64,000 nt of DNA from Escherichia phage warpig. Shown here in pieces: positions 3,113 to 20,807 of this stretch; within the stretch, counting starts at the first letter, position 1, and the number at the start of each line of letters is the position of its first letter. Where the stretch lies: the sequence record MN850637.1. One strand, given 5' to 3'. Under the pieces are notes generated by a model, which was not told the origin of the DNA, did no database searches, and saw nothing but the letters and a program-made list of their open reading frames with translations. The position numbers were made by a program, and so were the translations under genes.

Positions 3113-3383
3113 AGAAAAGTGGGGGATTTTACCATTAGTCAGTGAAGGAGGTAATGGTTGTGAGATGTACATGATACGTGGTCATGTTCCAGAACCAATT
3201 GCACTTGAGATGGTAAACAACTTTACAGATGGTTCTTACAAAGACTTAGGAGAGCCAACTATAAAGCAGCAATGGGTAAAGCCTGTCCCAGACAGCACAG
3301 GTAACTGTAGTGTACTTTACCACGTTGTAGACCCTGTAAAATGCAAATCTGCAATGGCAGTAACAAACGTAACTTTTGATTGA
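3105..3383 (+). CDS. hypothetical protein
   Basis: ORF track; translationally coupled to flanking genes. Confidence 0.4.
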   Translation: MAKEKWGILPLVSEGGNGCEMYMIRGHVPEPIALEMVNNFTDGSYKDLGEPTIKQQWVKPVPDSTGNCSVLYHVVDPVKCKSAMAVTNVTFD

Positions 3384-4276
3384 GAGAGAAAACTATGAAA
3401 ACATCTATCCGTGTCACAATTCATTCACCGACTAAAGGAACTCATGAAGAAGAGTTTAACATCATCCAATTCCCTTCTGGTGAGATTGGTGGCCACTTTT
3501 CACAAGAGCTTGTTGATTTTACTGCTTATGCAGCATCATCTATTAACAATGTGGTTATGATTGTAAAGGGTTATGACAAAGACACACTGTTTGCTGTGGC
3601 ACTGGCTAAAGAAGCAATTGACGATTTAGTTCCTCATGATTATGCCCTGAAGACTGTCATTTTTTACTACTTGCCAAATGCACGATACGACCGTCACATG
3701 TTTAAAGGCGACGCAGCAGCTTTAAAGGTTTTTGCTAAACAGGTAAATGCAATGGGATTTGGTGCAGTCTGTGCAGTTGACCCTCACAGTTATGTACCAG
3801 ATAACCTGTTTAACTGCTTCCAAAGTATTCCTCAAAAGGAGATTGCAGTCCACTATGCAAATGACCCTCTAATTGATTACTTAGTAGCCCCAGATGCAGG
3901 TGCTTCTAAGAAGATTGCAGAGACTGCTAAAGAGGCGGATAAACCATATATCACAATGTCTAAGGTGCGAAATCTTAAGACTGGAGAAATCACTGGTATG
4001 CGAATCCTTGACGATGTTGATTTGACCGATAAAACCGTCATGATTCTTGATGATATCTGTGATGGTGGTCGAACCTTCGTAGAGGCAGCTAAACACCTAC
4101 GTGAAGCAGGTGCAAAACGTGTTGAGCTTTATGTAACACATGGTATCTTCTCTAAAGGTGTTGAAAACCTTCTTGACAACGGTATCGACCATATTTACAC
4201 TACAAACTCTTTAGGCGAAGCTAAAGACCGTGGCTTAACACATTATGGTCAAGTTACTGTAGCAAACCTTGATTGA
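3380..4276 (+). CDS. ribose-phosphate pyrophosphokinase (PRPP synthetase)-family protein; candidate ADP-ribose pyrophosphokinase of an NAD+ reconstitution pathway
   Basis: 298 aa; phosphoribosyltransferase-type PRPP-binding loop VMILDDICDGGRTF; directly upstream of a NAMPT-like gene. Confidence 0.75.
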   Translation: MREKTMKTSIRVTIHSPTKGTHEEEFNIIQFPSGEIGGHFSQELVDFTAYAASSINNVVMIVKGYDKDTLFAVALAKEAIDDLVPHDYALKTVIFYYLPNARYDRHMFKGDAAALKVFAKQVNAMGFGAVCAVDPHSYVPDNLFNCFQSIPQKEIAVHYANDPLIDYLVAPDAGASKKIAETAKEADKPYITMSKVRNLKTGEITGMRILDDVDLTDKTVMILDDICDGGRTFVEAAKHLREAGAKRVELYVTHGIFSKGVENLLDNGIDHIYTTNSLGEAKDRGLTHYGQVTVANLD

Positions 4277-4321: not shown

Positions 4322-6103
4322 ATGACTAAATCACTTTATGCAGTACCAGCAGGTTTAAACGCAGATGCTTACAAGTCTGGTCATGTTTACCAGTATCCTA
4401 GTGCAACAGAGTACTTGATGTTCAACCTGACACCACGTAGTGACAAATGGTTTAACAGCCCCTTAGCAATTGATGGTGTAGTGGCTTTTGGTATTCAACG
4501 TTTCGTTAAAGATTACTTGATAGACCACTGGAACGCCACTTTCTTTGAACGTGATAAAAAAGAAGCAATTGACGAAATCTTAGAAGTCATGAATGGTGTT
4601 TTGGGTAAAGATGCTATCGGTCGAGAGCATTGGGAAGCACTTCACGACTTAGGCTATCTACCAGTTGAAGTATACGCTGTAGAAGAAGGTACAGTTGTTC
4701 CGATGCGTGTCCCAATGATTGTCTTTCAGAACACTGTTTCAGGTTTCCATTGGGTAGCAGGGTATCTGGAAGATGCTTTCTCTGCTGAGATTTGGAAGGC
4801 TTGTACCATTGCAACTATTGCATTGCACTACAAACGTATCTGTAAGAAGTGGGCTGACCTTACTTGTGACAATGACTTACATTTACCTTACCAGTGCCAT
4901 GACTTTGCTATGCGTGGTATGTCAGGCTTTACTGATGACGCATTTAACGCTGTAGGCCACTTAACCAGCTTTAAAGGGACTGATAGCTTCCCTGCTGTAT
5001 ATACAGCTAAACGCATCTACGGACAGTCTTACCCAGTCTCTGATATTGGTGGTTCTGTACCAGCCACTGAACACTCTGTAATGTGTGCAAACATTGCTTG
5101 GGAAGGTGGTAATGAATTGATTGAAGAGGAAAGACGCTTTAAAGGTGAATTACAAACCTTCCGTCGCTTCTTAACAGAAACTTACCCAACTGGTATTGCA
5201 AGTATTGTTTCAGATACTTATAACTTCTGGAGAACTGTGTCAGAAATCTTACCAGCACTTCGTAAAGAGATTATGGAACGTGACGGTAAACTGGTAATTC
5301 GTCCTGACTCTGGAGACCCTGTACATATTGTCACAGGTTATAAAGCAATCCACTTAGAGTGTGCTAAAAAGGCTTATTACGAGCACCTAAGCAAGCTGGA
5401 AGCCAGTGACACAATGCTGAATGCTGTTCTGAACATGAAGCTTGAAAACATCAGCTATGGTATTGCTGGATGGCTACTGTCAGAAGGCTACGAAATGGTT
5501 GTTGACCGAGAAGACTTTGAAGTTGCTGATACAGTGATGTTGAAAAATACTTATATGGTTGGCTCTGCAAACGTTGTAACACGTCCTGTAGCAGAGATTG
5601 ATGGAGCTATTAAGACCCTGTACAACATCTTCGGAGGGACTATTAACTCTAAAGGGTTTAAGGTACTGGATGAGCACATCGGCCTTATCTATGGTGACTC
5701 TATCACACTGGAACGTGCAAACGAAATCCTGAAGCGTCTGTATGAAATGGGTTTTGCAAGCTCTAACGTAGTGTTTGGCGTAGGCTCTTACACTTACCAG
5801 TACATGACTCGTGACACCTTTGCATTTGCTGTTAAAGCAACTCTTGCAAGCATTGGTGGTAAAGAGATTATGCTTGCAAAAGACCCTAAAACAGATAGTG
5901 GTGTTAAGAAGTCTGCTTTTGGTGGTGTAGCACCTATGTGGGATGGTGATAAGTTGAAAGCTGTAGATGGCTATGGATTCCAGAGCTTTGCAGATGCACT
6001 TGAACATCCAGCTTGTGCTTTACGTTTAGTCTTTAGTGACTCTGAGCAGTACGGTTACACATCTCTTGGTGATATTCGAAATAATATTGACAAGCAGCTT
6101 TAA
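4322..6103 (+). CDS. nadV: nicotinamide phosphoribosyltransferase (NAMPT/NadV)-family protein
   Basis: 593 aa; NAPRTase-family signature LVIRPDSGDPV; N-terminal YKSGHVYQYP. Confidence 0.8.
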   Translation: MTKSLYAVPAGLNADAYKSGHVYQYPSATEYLMFNLTPRSDKWFNSPLAIDGVVAFGIQRFVKDYLIDHWNATFFERDKKEAIDEILEVMNGVLGKDAIGREHWEALHDLGYLPVEVYAVEEGTVVPMRVPMIVFQNTVSGFHWVAGYLEDAFSAEIWKACTIATIALHYKRICKKWADLTCDNDLHLPYQCHDFAMRGMSGFTDDAFNAVGHLTSFKGTDSFPAVYTAKRIYGQSYPVSDIGGSVPATEHSVMCANIAWEGGNELIEEERRFKGELQTFRRFLTETYPTGIASIVSDTYNFWRTVSEILPALRKEIMERDGKLVIRPDSGDPVHIVTGYKAIHLECAKKAYYEHLSKLEASDTMLNAVLNMKLENISYGIAGWLLSEGYEMVVDREDFEVADTVMLKNTYMVGSANVVTRPVAEIDGAIKTLYNIFGGTINSKGFKVLDEHIGLIYGDSITLERANEILKRLYEMGFASSNVVFGVGSYTYQYMTRDTFAFAVKATLASIGGKEIMLAKDPKTDSGVKKSAFGGVAPMWDGDKLKAVDGYGFQSFADALEHPACALRLVFSDSEQYGYTSLGDIRNNIDKQL

Positions 6104-6678: not shown

Positions 6679-9045
6679 ATGCGCATGGTAAACGACCACG
6701 CAGAAGTGATTAAGAGTTCAACTTCTTTGGAGACATCTCAAGCACAGATTACAATGACACCTGAAATGTTCAGCCTTTTGAGTTCAGGTGTATACACATT
6801 CAAAGAAAGGGCAGTGATTCGTGAACTGTCATGTAACGCAGTAGATGCTCAAAAAGAAGCTGGAAAAGAGAACATCCCATTCCATGTGCATTTACCTACT
6901 CGATTTGAGCCTTACTTTGAAGTCCGTGACTTTGGAACTGGTTTAACCCATGACAAAGTAATGAGTTTGTATCTGAACTATGGGGCTTCTACGAAGAATG
7001 ACTCCAATGATTACATTGGTGCAATGGGTATCGGCTCAAAATCACCATTTGCAATTGCTCAGTCATTCACAGTATCTAGCTATGTTGATGGTGTTGTTAA
7101 TAAGTACTCTGTTTACCTTGAGAATGGTATCCCTCAAGTAACTAAGCTTACTACCAACCCAACAAATGAACCCAATGGTTTAGCTGTACGTGTAGCAGTT
7201 GCTGACCATCGTATTTCAAAGTTCTTTGAAGAGGCTGGTCACGTATACTCATACTTTGCTGTAAAACCAGAAAGTAACATTGTATATGATGATGTATTAG
7301 CAGATATGAATGTCATTGCCCGTGAAGATGGTGTTTATGATGCTATGATTCATAAGCAAAGCTGGCGTTCTAGTGGTAACAGGACAGAGTTTAATGTGGT
7401 GATGGGTAATATTGCCTATCCAGTGAACATGGAAGCATTACTTGGTGATGATTTCTTCAAAGTCTTGCCAGAGTTTTTCCGTAGGAGCGTAGACCTTGTA
7501 AACATCTACATGCCTATTGGTTCAGTTGCTATAGCAGCTTCTCGTGAAGCCTTGCAGATGAATGATACGACAAAAAATGTTATCATTGAGGCAACTAAAA
7601 AGATAACTGAAGCAATTACAAAGGATGTTATCAAGAAAGTTAATAGCCAACCTACACTCATGGATGCTGCACAGGCTTATGCTGAGTTACGTTTGAACTC
7701 ACGAGAGATGTTTAATGCTGTGTGTCCAAAGCTAGAGTGGGGAGGCGTTAAGCTTGATTCTCTGGAAGAAGAATTACTAAACATTCGTCGTGGGATTATC
7801 TACGCAGAAGACGGCTCAGTCATTTATGAACGTGACGGTAAAGGTAATATCAAGGTTGATAGGAACGGGAACAATATCCCTAAAGTGGATTATCTTTATA
7901 ATCCAGTTGCTTATGTCAAGTTCAACTCTTTAGAGAGTAAGATTCGTGCAGCAGCACTTTCCTACACTCAAGAGGCAAGTATGTTCAATATCTTTGGTGC
8001 AATGCGTAAAAGCCAAATTGAACAGTTTTTGTTCGTGATTAATGACCGTCGTAATAAAAATGGCACTGAGAAGACTGTAGGCCGCAATCAGATTCTGCGT
8101 GGTGCATGTCGAGACTACGCTAGCGAGTCAAGCCTGTTCCACAGATACAATGGTATTGTGTTTGTATTCTCGACTGAAAAAGAGTTAGATGATTTAATCA
8201 ATCTACACAAGCTTGATAAAAGTTTGTTAAAGATTGTGAAGATGTCTGATAAGGAACACCATTATCAGCGTAAAGAAGCTGTGAGGGGTGTTGTAAAACT
8301 CTGGAAAGCTGTTCCATCAGAAACTAAAGCTTCATACACAGAGGTGTCAGAAGACCTAGATACAATTGAAGAACCCCAGCTTTATATCAAGGCAGTAGGC
8401 GACACAGTTGATGGTGAATGTTTTTGCTCATCCCCAGAAGATGTAGCTAAAACAATTGCTAATGTTATAGGAAAAACAGTCTATGTTTTCCGAAAAGCAA
8501 ATTGGAAAAAGATACCAGAAGACTGGATTGAAGTAGATGAGAAGCTATTGAATGACAGCTTAACTGATGTTCACTGGATTAATCATAACAGGTATATGAC
8601 ACGTATCTATATGAATGGTGTCCTTGACCTTACAAGTAGTTGGATTATTGCCAGAAACTTTACGTTTAATAACAAGAAGATTTCTCGCGGGTATTGCTAT
8701 TCACGAGATACAAACAAAACCATCTTCTTAGAAGGTAATGAGAATGCTGTTGAGGCAATGTTTGGTAAGATTCAGTATGTGGCTGCACCGTTTGCATACA
8801 CTTACACTATCAGTGTTCTTCAGGATTTGAAGTCATGCCTTGACAATGATACAAGACTGTACAAAAAGATTAAGAAAGCGGGTGACCGCATGGTTATCAA
8901 ACTGACAAACTATCTTTCAAAAAGAAAACAAGAAAACTTCTTGCTTTCTCATTTAGATTGGAATAAAGTGTCACCCATCGAAGTGAGTAAGTTCTTAGGT
9001 TTTGATGTGAAGTGTGTTCCAGAAGGAACTACAATTTACGATTAA
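6679..9045 (+). CDS. rIIA: rIIA-like protein (GHKL/histidine-kinase-type ATPase N-terminal domain)
   Basis: 788 aa; N-terminal ATPase-like region (RELSCNAVDA...VRDFGTGLTHD...GAMGIGSKSPF); immediately followed by an rIIB homologue. Confidence 0.75.
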   Translation: MRMVNDHAEVIKSSTSLETSQAQITMTPEMFSLLSSGVYTFKERAVIRELSCNAVDAQKEAGKENIPFHVHLPTRFEPYFEVRDFGTGLTHDKVMSLYLNYGASTKNDSNDYIGAMGIGSKSPFAIAQSFTVSSYVDGVVNKYSVYLENGIPQVTKLTTNPTNEPNGLAVRVAVADHRISKFFEEAGHVYSYFAVKPESNIVYDDVLADMNVIAREDGVYDAMIHKQSWRSSGNRTEFNVVMGNIAYPVNMEALLGDDFFKVLPEFFRRSVDLVNIYMPIGSVAIAASREALQMNDTTKNVIIEATKKITEAITKDVIKKVNSQPTLMDAAQAYAELRLNSREMFNAVCPKLEWGGVKLDSLEEELLNIRRGIIYAEDGSVIYERDGKGNIKVDRNGNNIPKVDYLYNPVAYVKFNSLESKIRAAALSYTQEASMFNIFGAMRKSQIEQFLFVINDRRNKNGTEKTVGRNQILRGACRDYASESSLFHRYNGIVFVFSTEKELDDLINLHKLDKSLLKIVKMSDKEHHYQRKEAVRGVVKLWKAVPSETKASYTEVSEDLDTIEEPQLYIKAVGDTVDGECFCSSPEDVAKTIANVIGKTVYVFRKANWKKIPEDWIEVDEKLLNDSLTDVHWINHNRYMTRIYMNGVLDLTSSWIIARNFTFNNKKISRGYCYSRDTNKTIFLEGNENAVEAMFGKIQYVAAPFAYTYTISVLQDLKSCLDNDTRLYKKIKKAGDRMVIKLTNYLSKRKQENFLLSHLDWNKVSPIEVSKFLGFDVKCVPEGTTIYD

Positions 9046-9124: not shown

Positions 9125-10234
9125 ATGACTACTAAAACTAAAGCACAGATTGACGCAGAAATTTACGAACTGGTTAAAGAAGGTAAGCTGACTAAAACAG
9201 CTATTGCACAGAAGTTCAATACTTCAACCCGTTCAGTTGGTCGTGCTGTAGAGCGTCATGAAGCAACCTTAAAAGGTAAGAAAAAGGTAGCTTCTAAACC
9301 AGCTACGAAGACTTTGAAGCAAGTTGCTAAATCAGTTAAAAAGAAAGCTGACAAACCAGTTGAAAAGGTTGTTAAAGAGCCTGTACAGAAAGCTCCGGTA
9401 AATAAACTGCATGAAGCTATGCAGAATGGCAACCAGATTGAGTACATGATTACTGGCGACTCTGTTATCATGACTTTCGGTGCAGATTCTGAAATCGTTG
9501 AATCTACCCATCCGAACTACAAAGAAATCGTGATGGCTGTTGTATCCGGTGAGTATAAGAAAGCTTTCGAACTGATGAACATTCGTAAGTCTATCGAAAA
9601 CTTCACTCAGGGTACTATCACCATCAAAGGTGACAAGTTATTCTACGGTGCTGTTGAGATGCGTTCTACTCTGGTTGACCGTATTCTTCACATGATGAAG
9701 ACTGGAGATAAGGGTTTTGAACGCCTTGTGATGTTCTTCGAAAAACTGATGGAAAACCCATCTAAAGACTCTGTAGAACAACTTTGGGGATTCGTATCTC
9801 ACCTTGATGTTGAAATTGATGAAGAAGGCTACATCATTGGTTGGAAGAAAGTCTCTACTCATGAAGGCAAGCTGGTTGACTCCCACACCTACAGAGTACC
9901 TAATGATTTGGGTAACATTGTAGAAATGCCACGTTGGATGGTTGATAATAACCGTAACGTGACTTGCTCTCAGGGTCTTCACGTTGGTGCTTGGGATTAT
10001 GTTCGTTGCTTCTCAGGTGATACAATCCTGAAGGTTCGTGTCCATCCACGAGATGTTGTATCTGTTCCAACTGATTACAACGATATGAAGATGCGTTCGT
10101 CTCGTTATGAAGTTGCAGCAATCGTTGATAATCAACGTAAAGTGCTGAAAGAATGGGATGGCAAGACTGAAGCTTTGCATGTCATCGTTGGCACTGCTGG
10201 TGAACTAATCTCCCAACGTAAACGTGAAATCTAA
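9125..10234 (+). CDS. rIIB: rIIB-like protein
   Basis: 369 aa; central/C-terminal blocks (LFYGAVEMRSTLVDRIL, KVRVHPRDVVSVPTDYNDMKMR) match my recollection of T4 rIIB. Confidence 0.7.
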   Translation: MTTKTKAQIDAEIYELVKEGKLTKTAIAQKFNTSTRSVGRAVERHEATLKGKKKVASKPATKTLKQVAKSVKKKADKPVEKVVKEPVQKAPVNKLHEAMQNGNQIEYMITGDSVIMTFGADSEIVESTHPNYKEIVMAVVSGEYKKAFELMNIRKSIENFTQGTITIKGDKLFYGAVEMRSTLVDRILHMMKTGDKGFERLVMFFEKLMENPSKDSVEQLWGFVSHLDVEIDEEGYIIGWKKVSTHEGKLVDSHTYRVPNDLGNIVEMPRWMVDNNRNVTCSQGLHVGAWDYVRCFSGDTILKVRVHPRDVVSVPTDYNDMKMRSSRYEVAAIVDNQRKVLKEWDGKTEALHVIVGTAGELISQRKREI

Positions 10235-10334: not shown

Positions 10335-10883
10335 ATGAAGAAATTGATTCTAGGTTTGTGCTTAATGTTTACAGCACACTTATCTTATGCAGTTGACTGC
10401 CCAGAGCTATCAATTAGCCAAAAAGTAAACATGTTAAAAGCTTACCAGTATGGTGAGAATAACATGGGTAAAGGTTGGGGTATCACTCTAGCTGCTATAG
10501 CCTTACAAGAGTCAGAGTTAGGTCTGAAGGTAGAGAATAAAAAGACACATGATTATGGTATCTTCCAGAATCACTTGAAGACTGTTGTAAAGCGTAACAA
10601 AATTAGTCCTAATGTGGCTAAAAAGAAACTCTTAAAAGACTTTGACTATGCTGCGAAGGAAACTCACAAAGAGCTTGAGTTTTGGACAAAGGTGCATGGT
10701 CAGCCAAAGTCAAAGAAGACTTTACAAAAAGTTTTAGCATCATATAATGCTGGGTATTCGTACAAAATCCCTAAAGCTAAGAAATATTCTCAAGATGTCT
10801 ATAACAACATGAAAGTCATTGCTCAATGTGAATTTGCAATAAACATTTCTAAGGTAAACCATGAAAAAATTAAAAAAGTCTGA
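10335..10883 (+). CDS. secreted lytic-transglycosylase (SLT)-domain protein
   Basis: 182 aa; signal peptide MKKLILGLCLMFTAHLSYA; SLT-like catalytic region AIALQESELG...DYGIFQ. Confidence 0.45.
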   Translation: MKKLILGLCLMFTAHLSYAVDCPELSISQKVNMLKAYQYGENNMGKGWGITLAAIALQESELGLKVENKKTHDYGIFQNHLKTVVKRNKISPNVAKKKLLKDFDYAAKETHKELEFWTKVHGQPKSKKTLQKVLASYNAGYSYKIPKAKKYSQDVYNNMKVIAQCEFAINISKVNHEKIKKV

Positions 10884-11556
10884 TGAAGTACTGTGTCATG
10901 CTTACGACTTACATCCTCATGAGTTAGGTCTTGATTCCTGTGTATGGACTCCAGAACAGTGTAGGGATTTTGAAGACACTGCAAGAGAAGTTGTATGTTC
11001 ACTCGAAGAGTTCCACACATCAGAGCCAATTGTGAATGTTGTAGATAAAGAGACTGGACAAACTATAGGTGTAAGTCGTGATAGCTTAGTCATAGTCAAT
11101 AAAGACCTTGTAGAAAAAGGTAACCTCATCTTAGCAGATATTGATGGTGTTCTTACAAATTTTAATCACGAAGATTGCTCAACGGAATTGACTGATGGGT
11201 CATTCTCACAGTACACTAATCTTCTTGACTCTGTAAGAGCAAAACCAACGTATGTCTTTAGTATTATTGATGCAATTGCTAATCATGCTGCCGTTGGACT
11301 CTTGACAGCGAGAGGCGAATCTCAGAGAATACCTACTGAGATGTTTTTAAGGCATAACACAGAGCATGATTATATGCTTTTTATGCGTGGTTTTGGAACT
11401 AACTCTATAAGTGCAGAAAGTTTGAAAGTGAGAATGATTCAGTCTTGCATTCTGCCTTACTTTAATATAGTATGTTTTATAGAAGATACAGAGAAGAACG
11501 TGCAGAAGGTGAACAGAATCCTTCCACACATCAAAACCATGTTAGTTAAACATTGA
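10861..11556 (+). CDS. HAD-superfamily hydrolase-like protein (possible nucleotidase/phosphatase)
   Basis: 231 aa; DxDG[TV]L-type motif ILADIDGVLTNF. Confidence 0.4.
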   Translation: MKKLKKSDEVLCHAYDLHPHELGLDSCVWTPEQCRDFEDTAREVVCSLEEFHTSEPIVNVVDKETGQTIGVSRDSLVIVNKDLVEKGNLILADIDGVLTNFNHEDCSTELTDGSFSQYTNLLDSVRAKPTYVFSIIDAIANHAAVGLLTARGESQRIPTEMFLRHNTEHDYMLFMRGFGTNSISAESLKVRMIQSCILPYFNIVCFIEDTEKNVQKVNRILPHIKTMLVKH

Positions 11557-12031: not shown

Positions 12032-12043
12032 GGTTAAGATACA

Positions 12044-12066
12044 GGCTCCTTCGGGAGCCTTTTTCA
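12044..12066 (+). terminator. Rho-independent terminator
   Basis: GGCTCC-TTCG-GGAGCC followed by TTTTTCATTT. Confidence 0.6.
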
Positions 12067-13189: not shown

Positions 13190-13391
13190 AAAGACACGGA
13201 AACTTATCAGGTCAGCAGTGTTCATTGGACGAAATGAAGTCATACCATTTACAGCAAATGATGTGATAGCTTACCGGAAGAACTTAGTATTCGCTGACTG
13301 TTTACGTGGATTCATCTCTGAACCATTGGAAGACTTTAAAAGTCGTTGTGGTAAAGGCATCATCATTCAAGAGGCAATTATTCATGGCTGA
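13164..13391 (+). CDS. hypothetical protein
   Basis: ORF track. Confidence 0.35.
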   Translation: MKVILARDKKTRKLIRSAVFIGRNEVIPFTANDVIAYRKNLVFADCLRGFISEPLEDFKSRCGKGIIIQEAIIHG

Positions 13392-13584
13392 CTTCTGCAA
13401 AGATTGTGCTATCGAAATGTTCGGACGTGATACAGGTGACTTAAAAGGTCTTATCACTGAAGATGACTTTAAGGCTGGCTATGCAATGCCAGTAATCTGT
13501 GAAGGTTGTGGATGTATCTGGGTAGACCACGAAGGACAGCGTGTAAAACCTTCAGAAGATAAAGAATCTTGGGAGAGATGCTAA
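13384..13584 (+). CDS. small Cys-rich (zinc-ribbon-like) protein
   Basis: ATG at 13384 within track ORF 13306..13584; MADFCKDC...CEGCGC. Confidence 0.35.
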   Translation: MADFCKDCAIEMFGRDTGDLKGLITEDDFKAGYAMPVICEGCGCIWVDHEGQRVKPSEDKESWERC

Positions 13585-14370
13585 ATGGGTATTGTAAAAA
13601 TCATCAATGGGGATATCTTCTCCGCATTTGATAAAGGTAAGTTTGATATTATTGGTCACGGTTGCAACTGTATGAACTTAATGGGTGCAGGTATCGCTGA
13701 CAAGATTTCTAAACTTTACCCAAAAGCATATGAGACCGATACAGAAGTTTATTTGTATGCAGGTGGCATAGGCCACAAACCCTGTGAAAATTTACTAGGT
13801 AATTTCTCTGTAGCACGTTTAAAACAAGGCCGTATAGCTAACCTTTACACTCAGCTTAAGACTGGTAAAGATGCCCGATACAGTGCTTTAGAGTCATCTT
13901 TGAAACAGCTTAACAGATACTGTGAAGTCAATCAGTTGAAGAAAGTCGGGTTACCTATGATTGGTGCAGGTATCGGTGGGCTAGACGCTCAAGCCGTCAC
14001 AGTTATCATTAATCAGGTGATGAAGAGTGTAGATGTGTATCTGTATGTCTATGAAGGAGAGATGTACCACAAGTTACGCTCAGGTTGGAAGAACTACTGT
14101 GAACCAGAATACTTTGCAGGTGTAGTAACGTTCACAGACAATACAGTTACCCTCTTCAGACGAAGAAAAGGTAAGATACATCAAAGTAACCCTCCGGTTG
14201 AAAAGATGTCTCTAAGTAACGCTCTAGTTACCCACCTGTCGAAGAGCAATCACAGGATTGCAGTAACATTTGGTAGTGATGCAGACACTTATATCTATGC
14301 AAGAACTGATGAGGGTATCGAGACAGTTTTCTCTTCGCCAGAAGTTACCTTCTTAGACGCAAAGAACTAA
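13585..14370 (+). CDS. macro-domain protein (ADP-ribose-binding/hydrolase fold) with extra C-terminal domain
   Basis: 261 aa; macro motifs GDIFSAFDKGKFDIIGHGCNCMNLMGAGIA and LPMIGAGIGGL. Confidence 0.65.
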   Translation: MGIVKIINGDIFSAFDKGKFDIIGHGCNCMNLMGAGIADKISKLYPKAYETDTEVYLYAGGIGHKPCENLLGNFSVARLKQGRIANLYTQLKTGKDARYSALESSLKQLNRYCEVNQLKKVGLPMIGAGIGGLDAQAVTVIINQVMKSVDVYLYVYEGEMYHKLRSGWKNYCEPEYFAGVVTFTDNTVTLFRRRKGKIHQSNPPVEKMSLSNALVTHLSKSNHRIAVTFGSDADTYIYARTDEGIETVFSSPEVTFLDAKN

Positions 14371-14440
14371 GAAACTCTGTAGAGTATTCACAATAAACTA
14401 AGCCTTTCTTATCTGGTAAATTTTTCAGGTAAGGAGGGCT

Positions 14441-14640
14441 TTTTCATTTCAGAATTGTGCAGGTATATTTCTATAGAGAAATCTGTAGAGGAAATTTTGA
14501 ACTCCAAAGAGAAAATTCATTTTCAAACTGTGCAGGTAATCTCCAAAGGGTTTTTTCATTTTCAAAACGTGCAGAGAAAAATCAGGTCGGGCAAGAAAAA
14601 TCATTTTAGAATTGTGCAGGTAGGTGGGTGCAGGTGGGGA
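14441..14640 (+). repeat. 4-5 degenerate direct repeats of TTTTCAtTTCAgAAtTGTGCAGGTA-like units
   Basis: Read directly: copies near 14441, 14514, 14553, 14596 and a GTGCAGGT(G)G tail. Confidence 0.5.
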
Positions 14641-14800
14641 TGTCGCCATTTCTCACAAGGCTACCACATCTGGAAATAAAAGTCAACAGAAAAATTTGTA
14701 GCGGATTGAAAAATAATTCTTGATTGTAGTTCTGTTTTGTGGTATTCGCGCGCACCCGTTTCATTACAATTTTTGCAAAAAAATATTTTTAAAATTCCTA

Positions 14801-14879: not shown

Positions 14880-15086
14880 ATGCTTTACAGTCGTGAATTG
14901 ATGGTTACAACTAACGTTAACACAAAGGTAAAACGTTTTTACATGCAAATTTGTGGCGTATGGTCTAGAATATCAGAAGCTGACTATTGCAACTATGTAG
15001 AAACGGCTATAAACTCTAATTGCTACCTTACAAGAAATACAAGAAAGTACATAAGACAGACAGCAATTTACTACTACGATAAATAA
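14880..15086 (+). CDS. small early-region protein (hypothetical)
   Basis: 68 aa; ATG preceded by conserved leader with GGAG. Confidence 0.45.
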   Translation: MLYSRELMVTTNVNTKVKRFYMQICGVWSRISEADYCNYVETAINSNCYLTRNTRKYIRQTAIYYYDK

Positions 15087-15091
15087 AGTAC

Positions 15092-15173
15092 TTTACAAGG
15101 GGCTTATAGTTCGATAGAGTAAGCCCCAGATAAAGAGCTTTGCTAACTAACCTTAAACTAGGAGAATCTGAAA
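15092..15173 (+). promoter_or_regulatory. class-1 cassette: TTTACA-N17-TAGAGT with GGGGCTTA/TAAGCCCC palindrome in spacer, then conserved leader
   Basis: palindrome 15099-15127; leader ends CTAGGAGAATCTGAAAATG. Confidence 0.4.
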
Positions 15174-15554
15174 ATGGCATATCGTGCACCTAAATTCATC
15201 AACAAAGACAACTTTCGCAACGCACTGGAGAAGTCACTTGATGAAAAATTTAACGGTAAATTGATTATTGTTCACGCATTCAATTTTAAGTATGATATTA
15301 ATGGGAATAAAATCAACCATTACACGGCAACCATGATAGATGGTACACTTTCAAGTGAAAAAGCCGTACTGAATGCACTTGCTGGACGCGGTAAAAACCT
15401 GATAAAATGTGATAAGCGACGTTATCAGGGTGGCGCATATGGTTACGATGATGCTGTTTACCATCTTGAAAACATGGGCTATCAAGTAGAAAAAGCTGGA
15501 GTATCACAAATTATCGGGAGTGATGGTTATGTGACAATTTTCAAAATTAACTAA
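15174..15554 (+). CDS. small early-region protein (hypothetical)
   Basis: 126 aa ORF behind class-1 cassette. Confidence 0.5.
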   Translation: MAYRAPKFINKDNFRNALEKSLDEKFNGKLIIVHAFNFKYDINGNKINHYTATMIDGTLSSEKAVLNALAGRGKNLIKCDKRRYQGGAYGYDDAVYHLENMGYQVEKAGVSQIIGSDGYVTIFKIN

Positions 15555-15562
15555 TAAAGTAC

Positions 15563-15643
15563 TTTACAAGGGGCTTATAGTTCGATAGAGTAAGCCCCAG
15601 ATAAAGAGCTTTACCACTAAATCCTAAATTGGAGAACTTAAAA
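15563..15643 (+). promoter_or_regulatory. class-1 cassette (near-identical copy)
   Basis: same palindrome (15570-15598) and leader. Confidence 0.4.
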
Positions 15644-15901
15644 ATGGCTATTATCAAAAACGTTGTAATTACTGCAAAGACTCGTGATGACGCTCGCGTT
15701 ATGGCTAAAAAGTTATGCGGAAAAGTGGTTGACAACGGAAAACAAACTGCTGTAAGGTGGGGCGTGAAAGCTGATAAGCAACTAACCTTAAAACATAATT
15801 CAAACAACCTTTTTAAAGGTGTAAAATCACTCGGTAAAGTGAACGTTTTTACCAAAAAAGGCTATAAAATGCACTTATCACTAACTGGCAATTTAATCTG
15901 A
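15644..15901 (+). CDS. small early-region protein (hypothetical, basic)
   Basis: ATG at 15644 after GGAGAACTTAAAA; track ORF 15629 begins at an in-frame TTG. Confidence 0.45.
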   Translation: MAIIKNVVITAKTRDDARVMAKKLCGKVVDNGKQTAVRWGVKADKQLTLKHNSNNLFKGVKSLGKVNVFTKKGYKMHLSLTGNLI

Positions 15902-15909
15902 TAAAGTAC

Positions 15910-15996
15910 TTTACAAGGGGCTTAAAAGTTGATATCTTAAGCCCCAGATAAAGAGCTTTACCACTAAATCAAGTCCTTAAACTAGGAGATTCAAAA
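15910..15996 (+). promoter_or_regulatory. class-1 cassette (variant palindrome GGGGCTTAA/TTAAGCCCC)
   Basis: palindrome 15917-15945; conserved leader. Confidence 0.4.
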
Positions 15997-16509
15997 ATGA
16001 AAACTGTAGACGCTACCTTTGAAGTTGTAAAAGAAAAATTTTCCATCGTTTATGAGGCTGTTAATTGCTATGAAGCAAGTCATAATCTTGATAATTGGAA
16101 GTTTACAGATGACCATCAAGGCGGTGTGACTGTTAAAAATCCTAACTGTCAGCGTAATGATTTTAAATATGCAATCCCTTTACATTACAGCCTTAAGCAG
16201 CTTTCAAGTGACTATGCAAAACAAGGCCGTGAGAATCCATCGAAAGAGGCTTACACGAGCTTACAGAAAGAACTAGAAAGAGATTTAGAGGCTTCAGAGT
16301 ATAACCTTGCCGCGAAAGTTGTGGATGCAAACGGTAGCACGGTTTTAGAAAGTTTTTATCTTGGTTACGCTTTCGATTGGTGCTATCGTGACGGCGATGA
16401 TTTAGATGACAGGCTAAAAGAGGAAGTGAACAACGCAGACGCAGAATCTGAAGTATTAGAACGCTTGGAAGCATTAAAAGATTCAGTGATGAATATCTTT
16501 AAGGACTAA
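15997..16509 (+). CDS. small acidic early-region protein (hypothetical)
   Basis: 170 aa; conserved leader upstream. Confidence 0.5.
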   Translation: MKTVDATFEVVKEKFSIVYEAVNCYEASHNLDNWKFTDDHQGGVTVKNPNCQRNDFKYAIPLHYSLKQLSSDYAKQGRENPSKEAYTSLQKELERDLEASEYNLAAKVVDANGSTVLESFYLGYAFDWCYRDGDDLDDRLKEEVNNADAESEVLERLEALKDSVMNIFKD

Positions 16510-16897: not shown

Positions 16898-17223
16898 TGA
16901 CTGGCATCACTGCAATCATTGCCATTTTCGCGCTATATAAGGCATATAAAGCCTATAATCTAGCAAATAAGGCAATCACACAGCAGGTTAGCAATAACCT
17001 TGTAGAAAGCTTTCTAGGGCGCCTCAGTGATGAGCAAATAAAGCGGCTAGAGATGAGCTTCAGATATAAAGCGAAAACCTATCAGATAAGTGACATCTTC
17101 AAAGATGATTTTCAGTTAGTCGATGATTATAATTCACTGATAAATGCTTTAAATATCAGTGATTTGAAAGACTATTACGCTGTAATTGTTCAAGAATTGA
17201 GCAAACGAAAACAAAGTGTTTGA
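16891..17223 (+). CDS. small membrane protein (hypothetical)
   Basis: 110 aa; N-terminal TM ITAIIAIFALY; overlaps upstream stop. Confidence 0.4.
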   Translation: MLMTGITAIIAIFALYKAYKAYNLANKAITQQVSNNLVESFLGRLSDEQIKRLEMSFRYKAKTYQISDIFKDDFQLVDDYNSLINALNISDLKDYYAVIVQELSKRKQSV

Positions 17224-17312
17224 CACTGGTTTTCAGATAGATTAAATTACACATCAACGGGGCGGGAATGACCTTCCCCACTAAATAAAGTCCTAAACTG
17301 GAGATTCTGAAA
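17220..17312 (+). promoter_or_regulatory. class-2 cassette: TTGACA-N17-TAAATT, 5'-UTR hairpin GGGGCGGGAATGACCTTCCCC, conserved leader
   Basis: -35 17220-17225, -10 17243-17248. Confidence 0.5.
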
Positions 17313-17585
17313 ATGTATACTACTAACAACGGTCGTACTCTAAATGTAACTTTGCGCCACTATGTGAACGGTGTAATGCACTTCGAGGATTTACAAGCCG
17401 AACAACATATCTTAGATTGGCAAGTTGCAGGACTCCAAAAAACTGCTACAGGATACGGGAAAAAGATTCCAACCAGTTGGAAAGTATACTACGAAGGCCG
17501 TTTGCGCAGAATTTATCAGGATGTGCAAAGCAATAGCGCATCGAGTTACATCATAGTAAAAGGTAAAAAGCTGAATTTAGTATAA
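17313..17585 (+). CDS. small early-region protein (hypothetical)
   Basis: 90 aa. Confidence 0.45.
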   Translation: MYTTNNGRTLNVTLRHYVNGVMHFEDLQAEQHILDWQVAGLQKTATGYGKKIPTSWKVYYEGRLRRIYQDVQSNSASSYIIVKGKKLNLV

Positions 17586-17588
17586 AGT

Positions 17589-17671
17589 ACTTTACAAGGG
17601 GCTTATAGTTCGATAAAGTAAGCCCCAGATAAAGAGCTTTACCACTAAATCCTAAATTGGAGAACTTAAAA
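17589..17671 (+). promoter_or_regulatory. class-1 cassette
   Basis: palindrome 17596-17624; conserved leader. Confidence 0.4.
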
Positions 17672-18076
17672 ATGGCTATTAATAATCGCGAGTTATCAAT
17701 CTTAAAAGCACGTTTGACCGTTAACCGGATTAATGTTATTACGTCATCAGCACCGGACGAAACATTGCACAACATTATTGGGAAGATTCAAAGCGTTATC
17801 TTAGACGTTGAAAACGTAAAAAACTCATTGGCTGACGTTGCAGCAGGTATCACGCTAGACGGTGCACAATATGAAATGACCGACATGTTAGGCAAATCTA
17901 AGGTAATGAATAAAGAGCTTGATTTGAAAATGTTTCGATTTGCTGTTAAAGTGTGGCTATCTGTCGAGTATGACGCTAATTTTGCAATCGCTGACTTTTT
18001 CGCAACATGGTTGCAACGTAACTTAACAAATCACGATTTTCGTAATATCTGTGATGCAATTTACGCAGAACTATAA
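17672..18076 (+). CDS. small early-region protein (hypothetical)
   Basis: ATG at 17672 (MAINNRELS...); track ORF starts at upstream TTG. Confidence 0.45.
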   Translation: MAINNRELSILKARLTVNRINVITSSAPDETLHNIIGKIQSVILDVENVKNSLADVAAGITLDGAQYEMTDMLGKSKVMNKELDLKMFRFAVKVWLSVEYDANFAIADFFATWLQRNLTNHDFRNICDAIYAEL

Positions 18077-18085
18077 AAATTTTTG

Positions 18086-18177
18086 TTGACACTGGTTTTC
18101 AGATAGATTAAATTACACATCAACGGGGCGGGAATGACCTTCCCCACTAAATAAAGTCCTAAACTGGAGATTCAAAA
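18086..18177 (+). promoter_or_regulatory. class-2 cassette (identical promoter and hairpin to 17220)
   Basis: -35 18086-18091, -10 18109-18114. Confidence 0.5.
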
Positions 18178-18381
18178 ATGGCTATTATCAACGGTTTAAC
18201 CATTGAAACTACACACATCAAAGATATTAAAGTTGGTGATGTAGTCCTTTCCCACGGCGTAGAGAAAACTGTTACTGCAAAGGATATTAAAGAGGATTCT
18301 TTCATGGGTAGGACTCTCTTCGGTGATTCTTATTGCTTAGGTTATCTTGCAGTTTTAAAAGTTGTCAAAAATAACCGATAA
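18178..18381 (+). CDS. small early-region protein (hypothetical)
   Basis: 67 aa. Confidence 0.4.
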   Translation: MAIINGLTIETTHIKDIKVGDVVLSHGVEKTVTAKDIKEDSFMGRTLFGDSYCLGYLAVLKVVKNNR

Positions 18382-18386
18382 AGTAC

Positions 18387-18467
18387 TTTACAAGGGGCTT
18401 AAAAGTTGATATCTTAAGCCCCAGATAAAGAGCTTTACCACTAAATCCTAAACTGGAGATTCAAAAA
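18387..18467 (+). promoter_or_regulatory. class-1 cassette
   Basis: palindrome 18394-18422; conserved leader. Confidence 0.4.
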
Positions 18468-19010
18468 ATGAAATGCTTTCACGGTACTACTCAAGAAAAC
18501 TTTATCAACCTGATTAATAATGGTGATAAGCCATCAGGTGCATGGAATTGTTCGGATATGGATGGCAATTTTTACGTATACCCAGAAAATAAAATCTATG
18601 GTGACGATGAGGAAGAGATAGTATCCGAAGGTATTCAACAGGCGTTAGGAAATGCCACTATCACGGCAGCTTTCCAGATGAAAACCCAAAACATTGTTAT
18701 CTTGGAACTTGATATTCCAGAGGACGAATTAAATGATGATTATTCTTGTGATAATATGTCTGGCGTAGCAAGTTTTACAGAATACTTCGATTTAAATTGG
18801 ATTAAAAAGGTTTACGTAACCGAGTTTAATGCGATGTTTTCGCCTTTTTGTCTTCCTTCATTGGATAACCCAAATTTAAACTATCTTGATGAGTCTCTGG
18901 AGCTTCTTGCTAAAAGCGTTCAACAGTCGGACAGTATTCAGGTTTTTTGTGACATCATGGATACACTGGCAGGAAACATCGCAGAAGAGGATTTAAAGAG
19001 CTTTTTTTAA
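18468..19010 (+). CDS. small acidic early-region protein (hypothetical)
   Basis: 180 aa; followed by hairpin AGCCCCTTGTAGGGGCT. Confidence 0.5.
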   Translation: MKCFHGTTQENFINLINNGDKPSGAWNCSDMDGNFYVYPENKIYGDDEEEIVSEGIQQALGNATITAAFQMKTQNIVILELDIPEDELNDDYSCDNMSGVASFTEYFDLNWIKKVYVTEFNAMFSPFCLPSLDNPNLNYLDESLELLAKSVQQSDSIQVFCDIMDTLAGNIAEEDLKSFF

Positions 19011-19076: not shown

Positions 19077-19310
19077 ATGCTTACAACCGTTTACCTCATC
19101 CTTTCCATCTGTAATGGTCATTCATGCGATTTTAAAGGGCTTGAAGAGTTTACAGGAAGTAAAGAAAATGCTATTCAAGTTTGCCAGATAGCACGGCAAG
19201 ACTATCCCGCAAGTGATGATATACAATGCTACTTTAAGACAGAAGATAAAGACGGCATCTATTTTGACAGCGTTGACGGTCAATATGAAATTATCATTGA
19301 AAAAGACTAG
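19077..19310 (+). CDS. small early-region protein (hypothetical)
   Basis: 77 aa. Confidence 0.4.
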   Translation: MLTTVYLILSICNGHSCDFKGLEEFTGSKENAIQVCQIARQDYPASDDIQCYFKTEDKDGIYFDSVDGQYEIIIEKD

Positions 19311-19400
19311 ACAAGCCTGATAAAAGTCTGTAAATTGTCAATCAACGGGGAGGGAATGACCTTCCCCACTAAATGAAGTCCTAAACTGGAGATTCTAAAA
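19308..19400 (+). promoter_or_regulatory. class-2 cassette (TAGACA-N17-TAAATT, UTR hairpin, conserved leader)
   Basis: -10 19331-19336; hairpin GGGGAGGGAATGACCTTCCCC. Confidence 0.45.
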
Positions 19401-19871: not shown

Positions 19872-19962
19872 TTGCAATCAGCTATCAAAACAAGTAAATT
19901 ACTAATCAACGGGAGGGATGACCTCCCCACTAAGTAAAGTCCTTAAACTAGGAGATTCAAAA
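19872..19962 (+). promoter_or_regulatory. class-2 cassette (TTGCAA-N17-TAAATT, UTR hairpin GGGAGGGATGACCTCCCC, leader)
   Basis: -35 19872-19877, -10 19895-19900; extra TTGACA boxes at 19775-19793. Confidence 0.45.
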
Positions 19963-20493
19963 ATGAACAAGTTCAAAGCCATCAATTACATCCGCTCAAA
20001 TAGTGTTATGTCAAAGCCTGTTAAAGACACCTATGAATTCCGTTGTAATGGTGTACACTTTGCAACCATCACCAAATCAGAAAACGGGGCTTATTACATT
20101 CATCGCCGTAATGTTGCAACCGTTGTAGTCTCTCATTTTATGCAAGCTGTAGCAGAGTTATTACCGCTATTCTTAGAGATTTACTTAGATGAGTGTAAAA
20201 ACGTTCACAACCACGTTAAAAACCTTTTAAACAGTTATAAAATGGCTTATGAACGTTCTATCAAGTCCTTAAACAAGTTTTACAACGCACCTGAAAATAC
20301 TGTGTCAATAGCCTATGCTGCAAATGGTGGGATGGTAAACTTATCCAATGTGGAAGAAATCGAACTGCATGACTTACGCCCTGAAGGTTATTCTAAAACC
20401 CTCGGTGAAGGTTTATCATTCAATATCAAGAACTTAGAAAAAACTTTAAAAGATATTGAAAAAGATATTGACGAGACAATCAAAAATCTGTAA
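19963..20493 (+). CDS. early-region protein (hypothetical)
   Basis: ATG at 19963 (MNKFKAINYIRS...); track ORF 19918 starts inside the leader hairpin. Confidence 0.45.
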   Translation: MNKFKAINYIRSNSVMSKPVKDTYEFRCNGVHFATITKSENGAYYIHRRNVATVVVSHFMQAVAELLPLFLEIYLDECKNVHNHVKNLLNSYKMAYERSIKSLNKFYNAPENTVSIAYAANGGMVNLSNVEEIELHDLRPEGYSKTLGEGLSFNIKNLEKTLKDIEKDIDETIKNL

Positions 20494-20558
20494 ATTACTA
20501 ATCAACGGGAGGGATGACCTCCCTACTAAATAAAGTCCTTAAACTAGGAGACTCTAAA
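20468..20558 (+). promoter_or_regulatory. class-2 cassette (TTGACG-N17-TAAATT overlapping upstream stop codon)
   Basis: -35 20468-20473, -10 20491-20496. Confidence 0.45.
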
Positions 20559-20807
20559 ATGGCAACTATCCGCGCAACTGTTAACGAATTTGGCTTCTAC
20601 TCTCTGGATGTTAAATTCGACCTTGTAGGTACTGATAACGCCTTTGAAATGGTGAAAGTTCTTATCAGTCAGACCATCAAAGACTATAATCCTTCAGATG
20701 AGTTCTGGAAAGAAACAAAACAGGAAGTTCTCAAAGAGGGCTATTCATATCACTATTGGGGTGAAAAAATCGTCTCCCTGTACTACGACAAAGAAGGCAC
20801 TAACTAA
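20559..20807 (+). CDS. small early-region protein (hypothetical)
   Basis: ATG at 20559 (MATIRATVNEFG...). Confidence 0.45.
   Translation: MATIRATVNEFGFYSLDVKFDLVGTDNAFEMVKVLISQTIKDYNPSDEFWKETKQEVLKEGYSYHYWGEKIVSLYYDKEGTN

Follow-up and report, generated by a model that had tools for sequence, protein, structure and literature searches.

A two-domain macrodomain protein of Felix O1-like phages as a candidate anti-DarT factor of the T4 Tk.4 type

That phages encode macrodomains able to reverse DarT-type ADP-ribosylation of DNA has come to light only recently (PhiKZ gp104 and T4 Tk.4; 2025-2026). A HIDEN-SEQ preprint reported that tk.4 was the only gene of T4 to score as conditionally essential on a DarTG2 host, and that a clean tk.4 knockout sensitized T4 to DarTG2; the gene was renamed adfM, for anti-DarT factor Macrodomain (bioRxiv 10.1101/2025.11.20.689424). 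The evidence for Tk.4 in this preprint is genetic. PhiKZ gp104, a DarG2-like protein of a chimallivirus, counters DarTG2, is imported into the phage nucleus, and removes DarT2-installed ADP-ribose from oligonucleotides in vitro (PMC13309987). Its active-site residues are N23 and K78, and the role of the Asn is described in the same report (PMC13309987). SCO6735 from S. coelicolor carries Gln85 at the position of the lysines DarG K80 and TARG1 K84, and both Q85A and Q85E abolish activity (PMC9411070, PMC9967889). Wild-type SCO6735 takes thymidine-linked ADP-ribose off DNA and gives protection from DarT, and its proposed mechanism is water-mediated (PMC9411070, PMC9967889). H24 and N27 were among the SCO6735 residues picked for active-site mutagenesis, and the protein also shows interaction-inhibition (PMC9411070, PMC9967889).

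We analyzed 64,000 nucleotides of Escherichia phage warpig (MN850637.1; this whole stretch is the window) and found only one macro domain in it, encoded by the gene at 13585-14370 (Table 1). The region was nearest to Escherichia phage JohannRWettstein (Bas63; Ounavirinae, Felixounavirus; 97.5% DNA identity), which has a ‘putative phosphatase’ CDS at the matching place. About 200 further Felix O1-like phages were 93-96% identical over the macro-gene region. The macro protein matched PHROG 335 (‘phosphatase’) over its full length (E 1.5e-111), and GenBank labels on its homologs were ‘O-acetyl-ADP-ribose deacetylase’, ‘macro domain-containing protein’, and ‘high-affinity ADP-ribose binding module’. 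The family bears the database label ‘phosphatase’ because T4 Tk.4 is annotated as ‘phosphatase; contains A1pp phosphatase motif’. This widespread annotation is probably misleading.

Table 1. Positions of the macro gene, its domains and motifs, and surrounding features in the window
Feature	Position	Strand	Remarks
Ribose-phosphate pyrophosphokinase gene (prs)	~3380-4276		NAD+ reconstitution, with nampt
Nicotinamide phosphoribosyltransferase gene (nampt)	4322-6103		NAD+ reconstitution, with prs
rIIA	6679-9045		
rIIB	9125-10234		
PNK-like ORF	10861-11556	+	‘polynucleotide kinase’ in relatives
66-aa ORF	13384-13584	+	directly 5' of macro gene
Shine-Dalgarno-like GGGAGAG	13571..13577	+	7 nt 5' of macro-gene ATG; read from sequence
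Two-domain macro protein gene, complete	13585..14370	+	261 aa plus stop; ortholog of bas63_0095; ORF list
N-terminal macro domain (residues 1-156)	13585..14052	+	TARG1/DarG/Poa1p class, T4 Tk.4 (AdfM)-like
Motif H25-G-C-N28-C-M-N-L-M-G-A-G-I-A38	13657..13698	+	conserved His and Asn, first glycine-rich ADP-ribose-binding loop
Allele-replacement cassette	13728..14555	+	codon ~48 to gene end, plus terminator; blastn against Felixounavirus ‘finno’
Motif N86-L-Y-T-Q90	13840..13854	+	Gln at catalytic Lys position of DarG (K80) and TARG1 (K84)
Second glycine-rich (diphosphate-binding) loop I126-G-A-G-I-G-G132	13960..13980	+	
Linker helix (residues 158-167) and beta-rich C-terminal domain (residues ~170-261)	14053..14367	+	six strands, one helix
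Terminator-like hairpin	14400..14451	+	17 pairs, 8-nt loop, T-rich tail; terminator scan
~20-nt motif TTCATTT(T)CA(A/G)AA(C/T)NGTGCAG	14443-14463, 14516-14536, 14555-14574		three copies
Intergenic module, first family	15083-15182, 15554-15653, 15901-16000, 17582-17681, 18378-18477		
Intergenic module, second family	17220-17312, 18086-18178, 19308-19400		
Intergenic module, third family	19887-19965, 20483-20561		

The macro gene starts with ATG and is the final ORF of an abutting same-strand run (i-spanin, o-spanin, four small hypotheticals, macro gene) that starts past a terminator at 12043-12060. A strong terminator-like hairpin at 14400-14441 closes its transcription unit. None of the neighbors (spanins, small hypotheticals) had a Pfam domain, and none of the neighboring genes was a darT toxin gene. 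The TAA of the 66-aa ORF abuts the macro-gene ATG, which suggests translational coupling. This ORF belongs to PHROG 2210 (unknown function; E 1e-40), and its cysteine pairs (CxxC...CxGC in MADFCKDC...VICEGCGC) suggest a zinc ribbon; its counterpart in phage finno is shorter (168 nt). We also considered NADAR/AdfN as a second anti-DarT factor in the window, and rejected it, as the sole tblastn match (E 0.13) lay inside the tape-measure protein and was spurious.

The N-terminal domain showed a three-layer alpha/beta/alpha macro fold with glycine-rich ADP-ribose-binding loops. Pfam Macro (PF01661) matched residues 25-141 with 31.8 bits, above its gathering score of 22 (E 1.5e-7). In NCBIfam and PADLOC, the sole significant match was to the macro half of DarG (E 7.8e-13 and 3.3e-13). 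Against the DarG equivalog NF048014, the macro protein reached 48.4 bits, below the cutoff of 250, and covered profile positions 4-153 of 338. The nearest structural and sequence neighbors were TARG1, DarG, BT1257, and Poa1p, not MacroD, PARG, or macroH2A. Structural-neighbor values were 16.1 for BT1257, 15.9 for Thermosipho DarG, 15.7 for M. tuberculosis (Mtb) DarG, 15.6 for TARG1, 14.3 for Poa1p, and 11.3-12.7 for MacroD1/2. A profile of the clade matched TARG1 (1.4e-13), BT1257 (8e-13), and Mtb DarG (1.3e-9), and also SCO6735 (5E3B; E 2.2e-9). A first-pass annotation had quoted macro-domain motifs from this protein, called it TARG1/DarG-like rather than MacroD-like, and proposed a profile search against macro families; the motifs were present, and the class assignment agrees with all of these matches.

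Within this class, the closest characterized relative was T4 Tk.4 (BLASTP, 34% identity over 160 aa, E 4e-24). PhiKZ gp104 matched Mtb DarG well (E 9e-25) and has an FPTK motif with Lys, whereas its match to the macro protein was marginal (24% identity, E 0.008). On sequence comparison, PhiKZ gp104 classes as a true DarG-type protein and the macro protein groups with T4 Tk.4, in a different macro clade. The name ‘AdfM’ was given independently to the non-orthologous PhiKZ gp104 (L005:22518-23003) and T4 tk.4 (L004:4926-5390), and annotation transfer on this name alone would conflate the DarG-type and Gln-type clades. All relatives of the macro clade from bacteria and T4-like phages were single-domain proteins of 150-158 aa, and in the 3 loci examined no DarT lay beside the bacterial relatives. 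On a ‘Bacilli bacterium’ MAG contig (JBOFGC010000414.1, L008; 44 kb), genes for a T4 Rnl1-type RNA ligase, a Tk.4-like macrodomain of the Gln type, and a Dda-type helicase follow one another; the contig almost certainly derives from a T4-like phage and not from a bacterial chromosome.

We examined the active-site residues in an alignment of 19 family members. In the first glycine-rich motif, H25, N28, G34, and G36 were invariant, and N28 aligned with the active-site Asn of DarG (N22) and PhiKZ AdfM (N23). NLYTQ was also invariant in the family, and the alignment set Q90 opposite the PTK of DarG and PhiKZ and the ITK of TARG1, so that the column of the catalytic lysine holds Gln. We observed Gln at this position in T4 Tk.4, in an Erwinia homolog, and in all bacterial relatives. 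In the second loop, G127, A128, G129, I130, and G132 were invariant in the family alignment, and G131 occupied the column of TARG1 Asp125, which resolves the lysyl intermediate. DarG Trp83, which stacks on the modified thymine, was replaced by Thr93, three residues past Q90; T4 Tk.4 has Pro in this column, and PhiKZ gp104 has Trp, as does DarG. By analogy with SCO6735, the precedent, Gln in place of Lys need not imply an inactive enzyme. We infer a Gln-type mechanism for the Tk.4/Felix clade because Q85 is essential in SCO6735 and its H24/N27/Q85 mirror H25/N28/Q90, where the equivalence of Q90 and Q85 is transitive, via DarG K80 and TARG1 K84.

Our preferred reading, which we rate at somewhat better than even, is that the product of the macro gene is an anti-DarT factor, DarG-like but orphan and of the T4 Tk.4 (AdfM) type, that removes DarT2-installed ADP-ribose from the thymidines of single-stranded phage DNA by a Gln-type mechanism. 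The N-terminal macrodomain would bind the ADP-ribose that a host DarT2-type toxin had put on these thymidines and would then hydrolyze the base-ribose bond, so that replication could proceed. Catalysis would probably be water-mediated and Gln-type, as in SCO6735 (His-x-x-Asn ... Thr-Gln), and not Lys-based as in DarG and TARG1. The C-terminal ~100-residue beta-rich domain would be an accessory module specific to the lineage and would pack against the macrodomain. It would most likely serve in targeting or partner binding, for example of the toxin or of a phage or host replication protein, and would evolve quickly in an arms race. Homology to an anti-DarTG2 factor and the Gln-type residues support the earlier proposal of an ADP-ribosylation eraser. 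The preferred reading also draws on the in vitro activity of PhiKZ gp104, on the dispensability of the gene and its counter-defense-rich surroundings, and on the allele replacement and the rapid change of the C-terminal domain described below. Counting against it are the missing DarG residues Lys80 and Trp83, the low score against the DarG equivalog, and the H-x-C-N motif that the protein has in common with Poa1p. The substrate (thymidine-linked ADP-ribosylated DNA) and catalytic competence are predicted from this homology and these residues, and at 34% identity to Tk.4 the substrate specificity of the macro protein could differ.

The C-terminal domain sets the macro protein apart from the single-domain relatives. 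We found the two-domain architecture only in ~85-92 kb Ounavirinae-type myoviruses, namely Felixounavirus, Citrobacter/Shigella Moogle-like phages, Erwinia Kolesnikvirus, and Pectobacterium and Yersinia relatives. The gene lay at one and the same position, 3' of the spanins, in Bas63, ESCO50, finno, and the Erwinia Kolesnikvirus, the loci that we inspected. Divergent versions of the C-terminal domain were homologous to one another (HHalign 95.9%, E 5e-9). Outside the family, the domain had no match in Pfam and nothing significant in PHROGs besides 335. Only its own family was returned by phmmer against 1.84e9 representatives, by a profile search of 5.8e9 proteins, and by Foldseek against BFVD. 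The C-terminal domain is an orphan fold confined to Ounavirinae, and the first-pass remark that about 100 C-terminal residues lack an obvious match stands. NCBIfam and PADLOC profiles did not relate it to the DarT-binding half of DarG. We rejected domain fission or fusion with the T4 neighbor genes vs and tk.3 (HHalign of the C-domain profile, probability 0.1%). A generic nucleic-acid binder was not supported either; a conserved DNA-binding role is unlikely because the net charge varies from -6 to +4 across the family. The C-terminal domain of the Felix group has a basic hairpin, FRRRKGKIH.

The two domains differed in their rate of evolution. The macro domain had a mean pairwise identity of 57% and a dN/dS among close relatives of 0.02-0.04; in the C-terminal domain the corresponding values were 30% and 0.14-0.23. 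Both domains are constrained, and the C-terminal domain evolves 5-7 times faster. In a blastn comparison with finno, identity was 94% up to 13727, there was no DNA homology over 13728-14555, and identity was 91% from 14556. The finno allele of the macro protein was 41% identical and occurred in finno and 12 other records, within the genus. The finno difference is therefore a clean cassette replacement of most of the gene plus its terminator. The allele replacement and the fast-evolving yet constrained C-terminal domain fit a host-conflict gene.

A related reading gives the C-terminal domain a more direct part. Here it would be a new fold that binds and directly inhibits a DarT2-type toxin or another defense effector, which would make the protein a dual-mode antitoxin (erasure plus stoichiometric inhibition). 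It would repeat the two-domain logic of DarG by convergence, with an unrelated second domain, and the allele cassettes would retarget it to toxin variants. We regard this version as unlikely. Within the preferred reading, partner or toxin binding by the C-terminal domain is an attractive hypothesis, drawn by analogy with the second domain of DarG (PMC11825919) and with the interaction-inhibition seen for SCO6735.

We weighed other substrates against thymidine-linked ADP-ribose. The macro protein might act on small-molecule ADP-ribose derivatives, as a Poa1p-like ADP-ribose-1''-phosphate phosphatase or as an O-acetyl-ADP-ribose deacetylase. In this role it could clear by-products of RNA repair (KptA/2H pathway) or destroy ADP-ribose-derived toxic metabolites or immune signals. 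The macro protein and Poa1p have an H-x-C-N motif in common. However, the clade profile matched Poa1p only over the N-terminal half (1e-8), whereas TARG1, DarG, and SCO6735 matched the full length of the macro domain. T4 Tk.4, the nearest relative that has been characterized, shows a phenotype specific to DarTG2. Beside the macro gene we saw no KptA/Tpt1 or 2H gene, and the PNK-like gene is separated from it by one terminator and eight ORFs. These data make a small-molecule substrate doubtful. The PNK-like ORF itself had no Pfam match and covered just the HAD-type 3'-phosphatase part of the PNK PHROG profiles (residues 84-219); it is therefore probably a phosphatase-only protein, not a bifunctional PNK.

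Reversal of protein or RNA ADP-ribosylation appeared quite improbable. The modification could come from host ART toxins (CmdT-type on mRNA, or ParT/RES-type) or from the phage's own ADP-ribosyltransferases, whose effect would be tuned. TARG1 was the best PDB sequence match of the macro protein, and the closest solved relatives, TARG1 and SCO6735, also de-MARylate proteins (PMC9967889, PMC9411070). RNA ADP-ribosylation defenses against T-even-like phages exist (PMC11618068). However, the protein-ester dyad of TARG1 (K84/D125) is absent, with Q90/G131 in its place, the literature searched reports no link of the clade to RNA- or protein-ART defense, and no ART gene was noticed in the neighborhood. 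A non-catalytic ADP-ribose reader or sponge, with the C-terminal domain as an effector or tethering module, is in keeping with the missing canonical Lys and Asp of the class, with the label of the one GenBank homolog called a binding module, and with an extra domain that could serve as output, but is highly improbable given that Gln is catalytically essential at the Q90 position in SCO6735, that N28 is invariant and its Asn counterpart is needed for activity in PhiKZ AdfM and DarG, and that single-domain relatives, including T4 Tk.4, have the same active site, the defense-specific phenotype of Tk.4 being best explained by enzymatic reversal.

The arm that holds the macro gene is non-essential and rich in counter-defense genes, with NAD-centered functions. 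prs and nampt lie ~7-10 kb upstream of the macro gene, and rIIA and rIIB lie 3-7 kb upstream. In PhageMaP, the Bas63 genes g79/g80 (prs/nampt) and g84/g85 (rIIA/rIIB) were reported as counters of Sir2-HerA and qatABCD. The same study called ~46-66 kb of Bas63 ‘uniformly nonessential’. The macro gene falls inside this segment and is accordingly non-essential on laboratory hosts. The PhageMaP defense panel for Bas63 had no DarTG, and the macro gene was neither flagged nor mentioned.

Downstream of the macro gene, we observed repeated intergenic modules of ~80-100 nt, of three families, 5' of most of the small genes. In each module, a promoter-like element is accompanied by a GC-rich hairpin (such as GGGGCTTA...TAAGCCCC) and by a GGAG ribosome-binding site that ends at the ATG. 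The modules resemble the promoter/stem-loop cassettes of T4-like phages, to which gene shuffling has been attributed, and could serve as substrates for the recombination that made the arm mosaic. Three copies of a ~20-nt motif sit in a ~500-bp non-coding gap past the macro-gene terminator. Homology to finno picks up, at 14556, at the start of the third copy. Two small minus-strand ORFs annotated in Bas63, bas63_0096/0097 (~14449-14764 in the window), overlap the repeats and are perhaps not genuine genes.

The macrodomain annotation in GenBank and the characterization of a homolog as an anti-DarTG2 factor were already known. Our data add that the two-domain form is fixed among the Felix O1-like proteins and has as its C-terminal domain an orphan that evolves fast and is swapped as a cassette, that the macro clade appears to have an SCO6735-type Gln active site, and that the name AdfM spans two distinct macro clades. 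With them, the T4-type clade with a Gln active site also takes in the Felix O1-like phages, which are in wide use for Salmonella and E. coli biocontrol and therapy. In Ounavirinae, the enzyme forms a permanent fusion with this orphan domain, which changes rapidly and is exchanged in cassette form. If this domain sets which toxin variants are neutralized, it would affect host range on DarTG-carrying strains.

Compared with known systems, the macro protein is most similar to T4 Tk.4. Both have HGCNC, NLYTQ with Gln at the Lys position, and a P-IGAGIG signature, and both are encoded by orphan phage genes that have no toxin partner and are non-essential on laboratory hosts. Tk.4 is a single-domain protein of 155 aa, whereas the macro protein adds a ~105-residue C-terminal domain that lacks a T4 counterpart; the anti-DarTG2 phenotype reported is that of T4. 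SCO6735 has the same Gln and His-x-x-Asn but is a bacterial, single-domain, distant relative with a longer central loop, which a single-sequence search with the macro protein misses. PhiKZ gp104, also single-domain, is likewise a phage-encoded orphan macrodomain with the active-site Asn conserved. Relative to human TARG1/OARD1 (PDB 4J5R/4J5S), K84 and D125 are replaced by Q90 and G131. Relative to DarG of DarTG2 (T. aquaticus and M. tuberculosis; PDB 5M31/5M3E/5M3I; NF048014), Lys80 and Trp83 are replaced by Q90 and T93, the DarT-binding half does not align with the C-terminal domain, and no darT is adjacent to the macro gene. If the C-terminal domain does determine the toxin that is countered, the macro protein would be a second, independent case of the ‘enzyme plus binder’ design seen in DarG.
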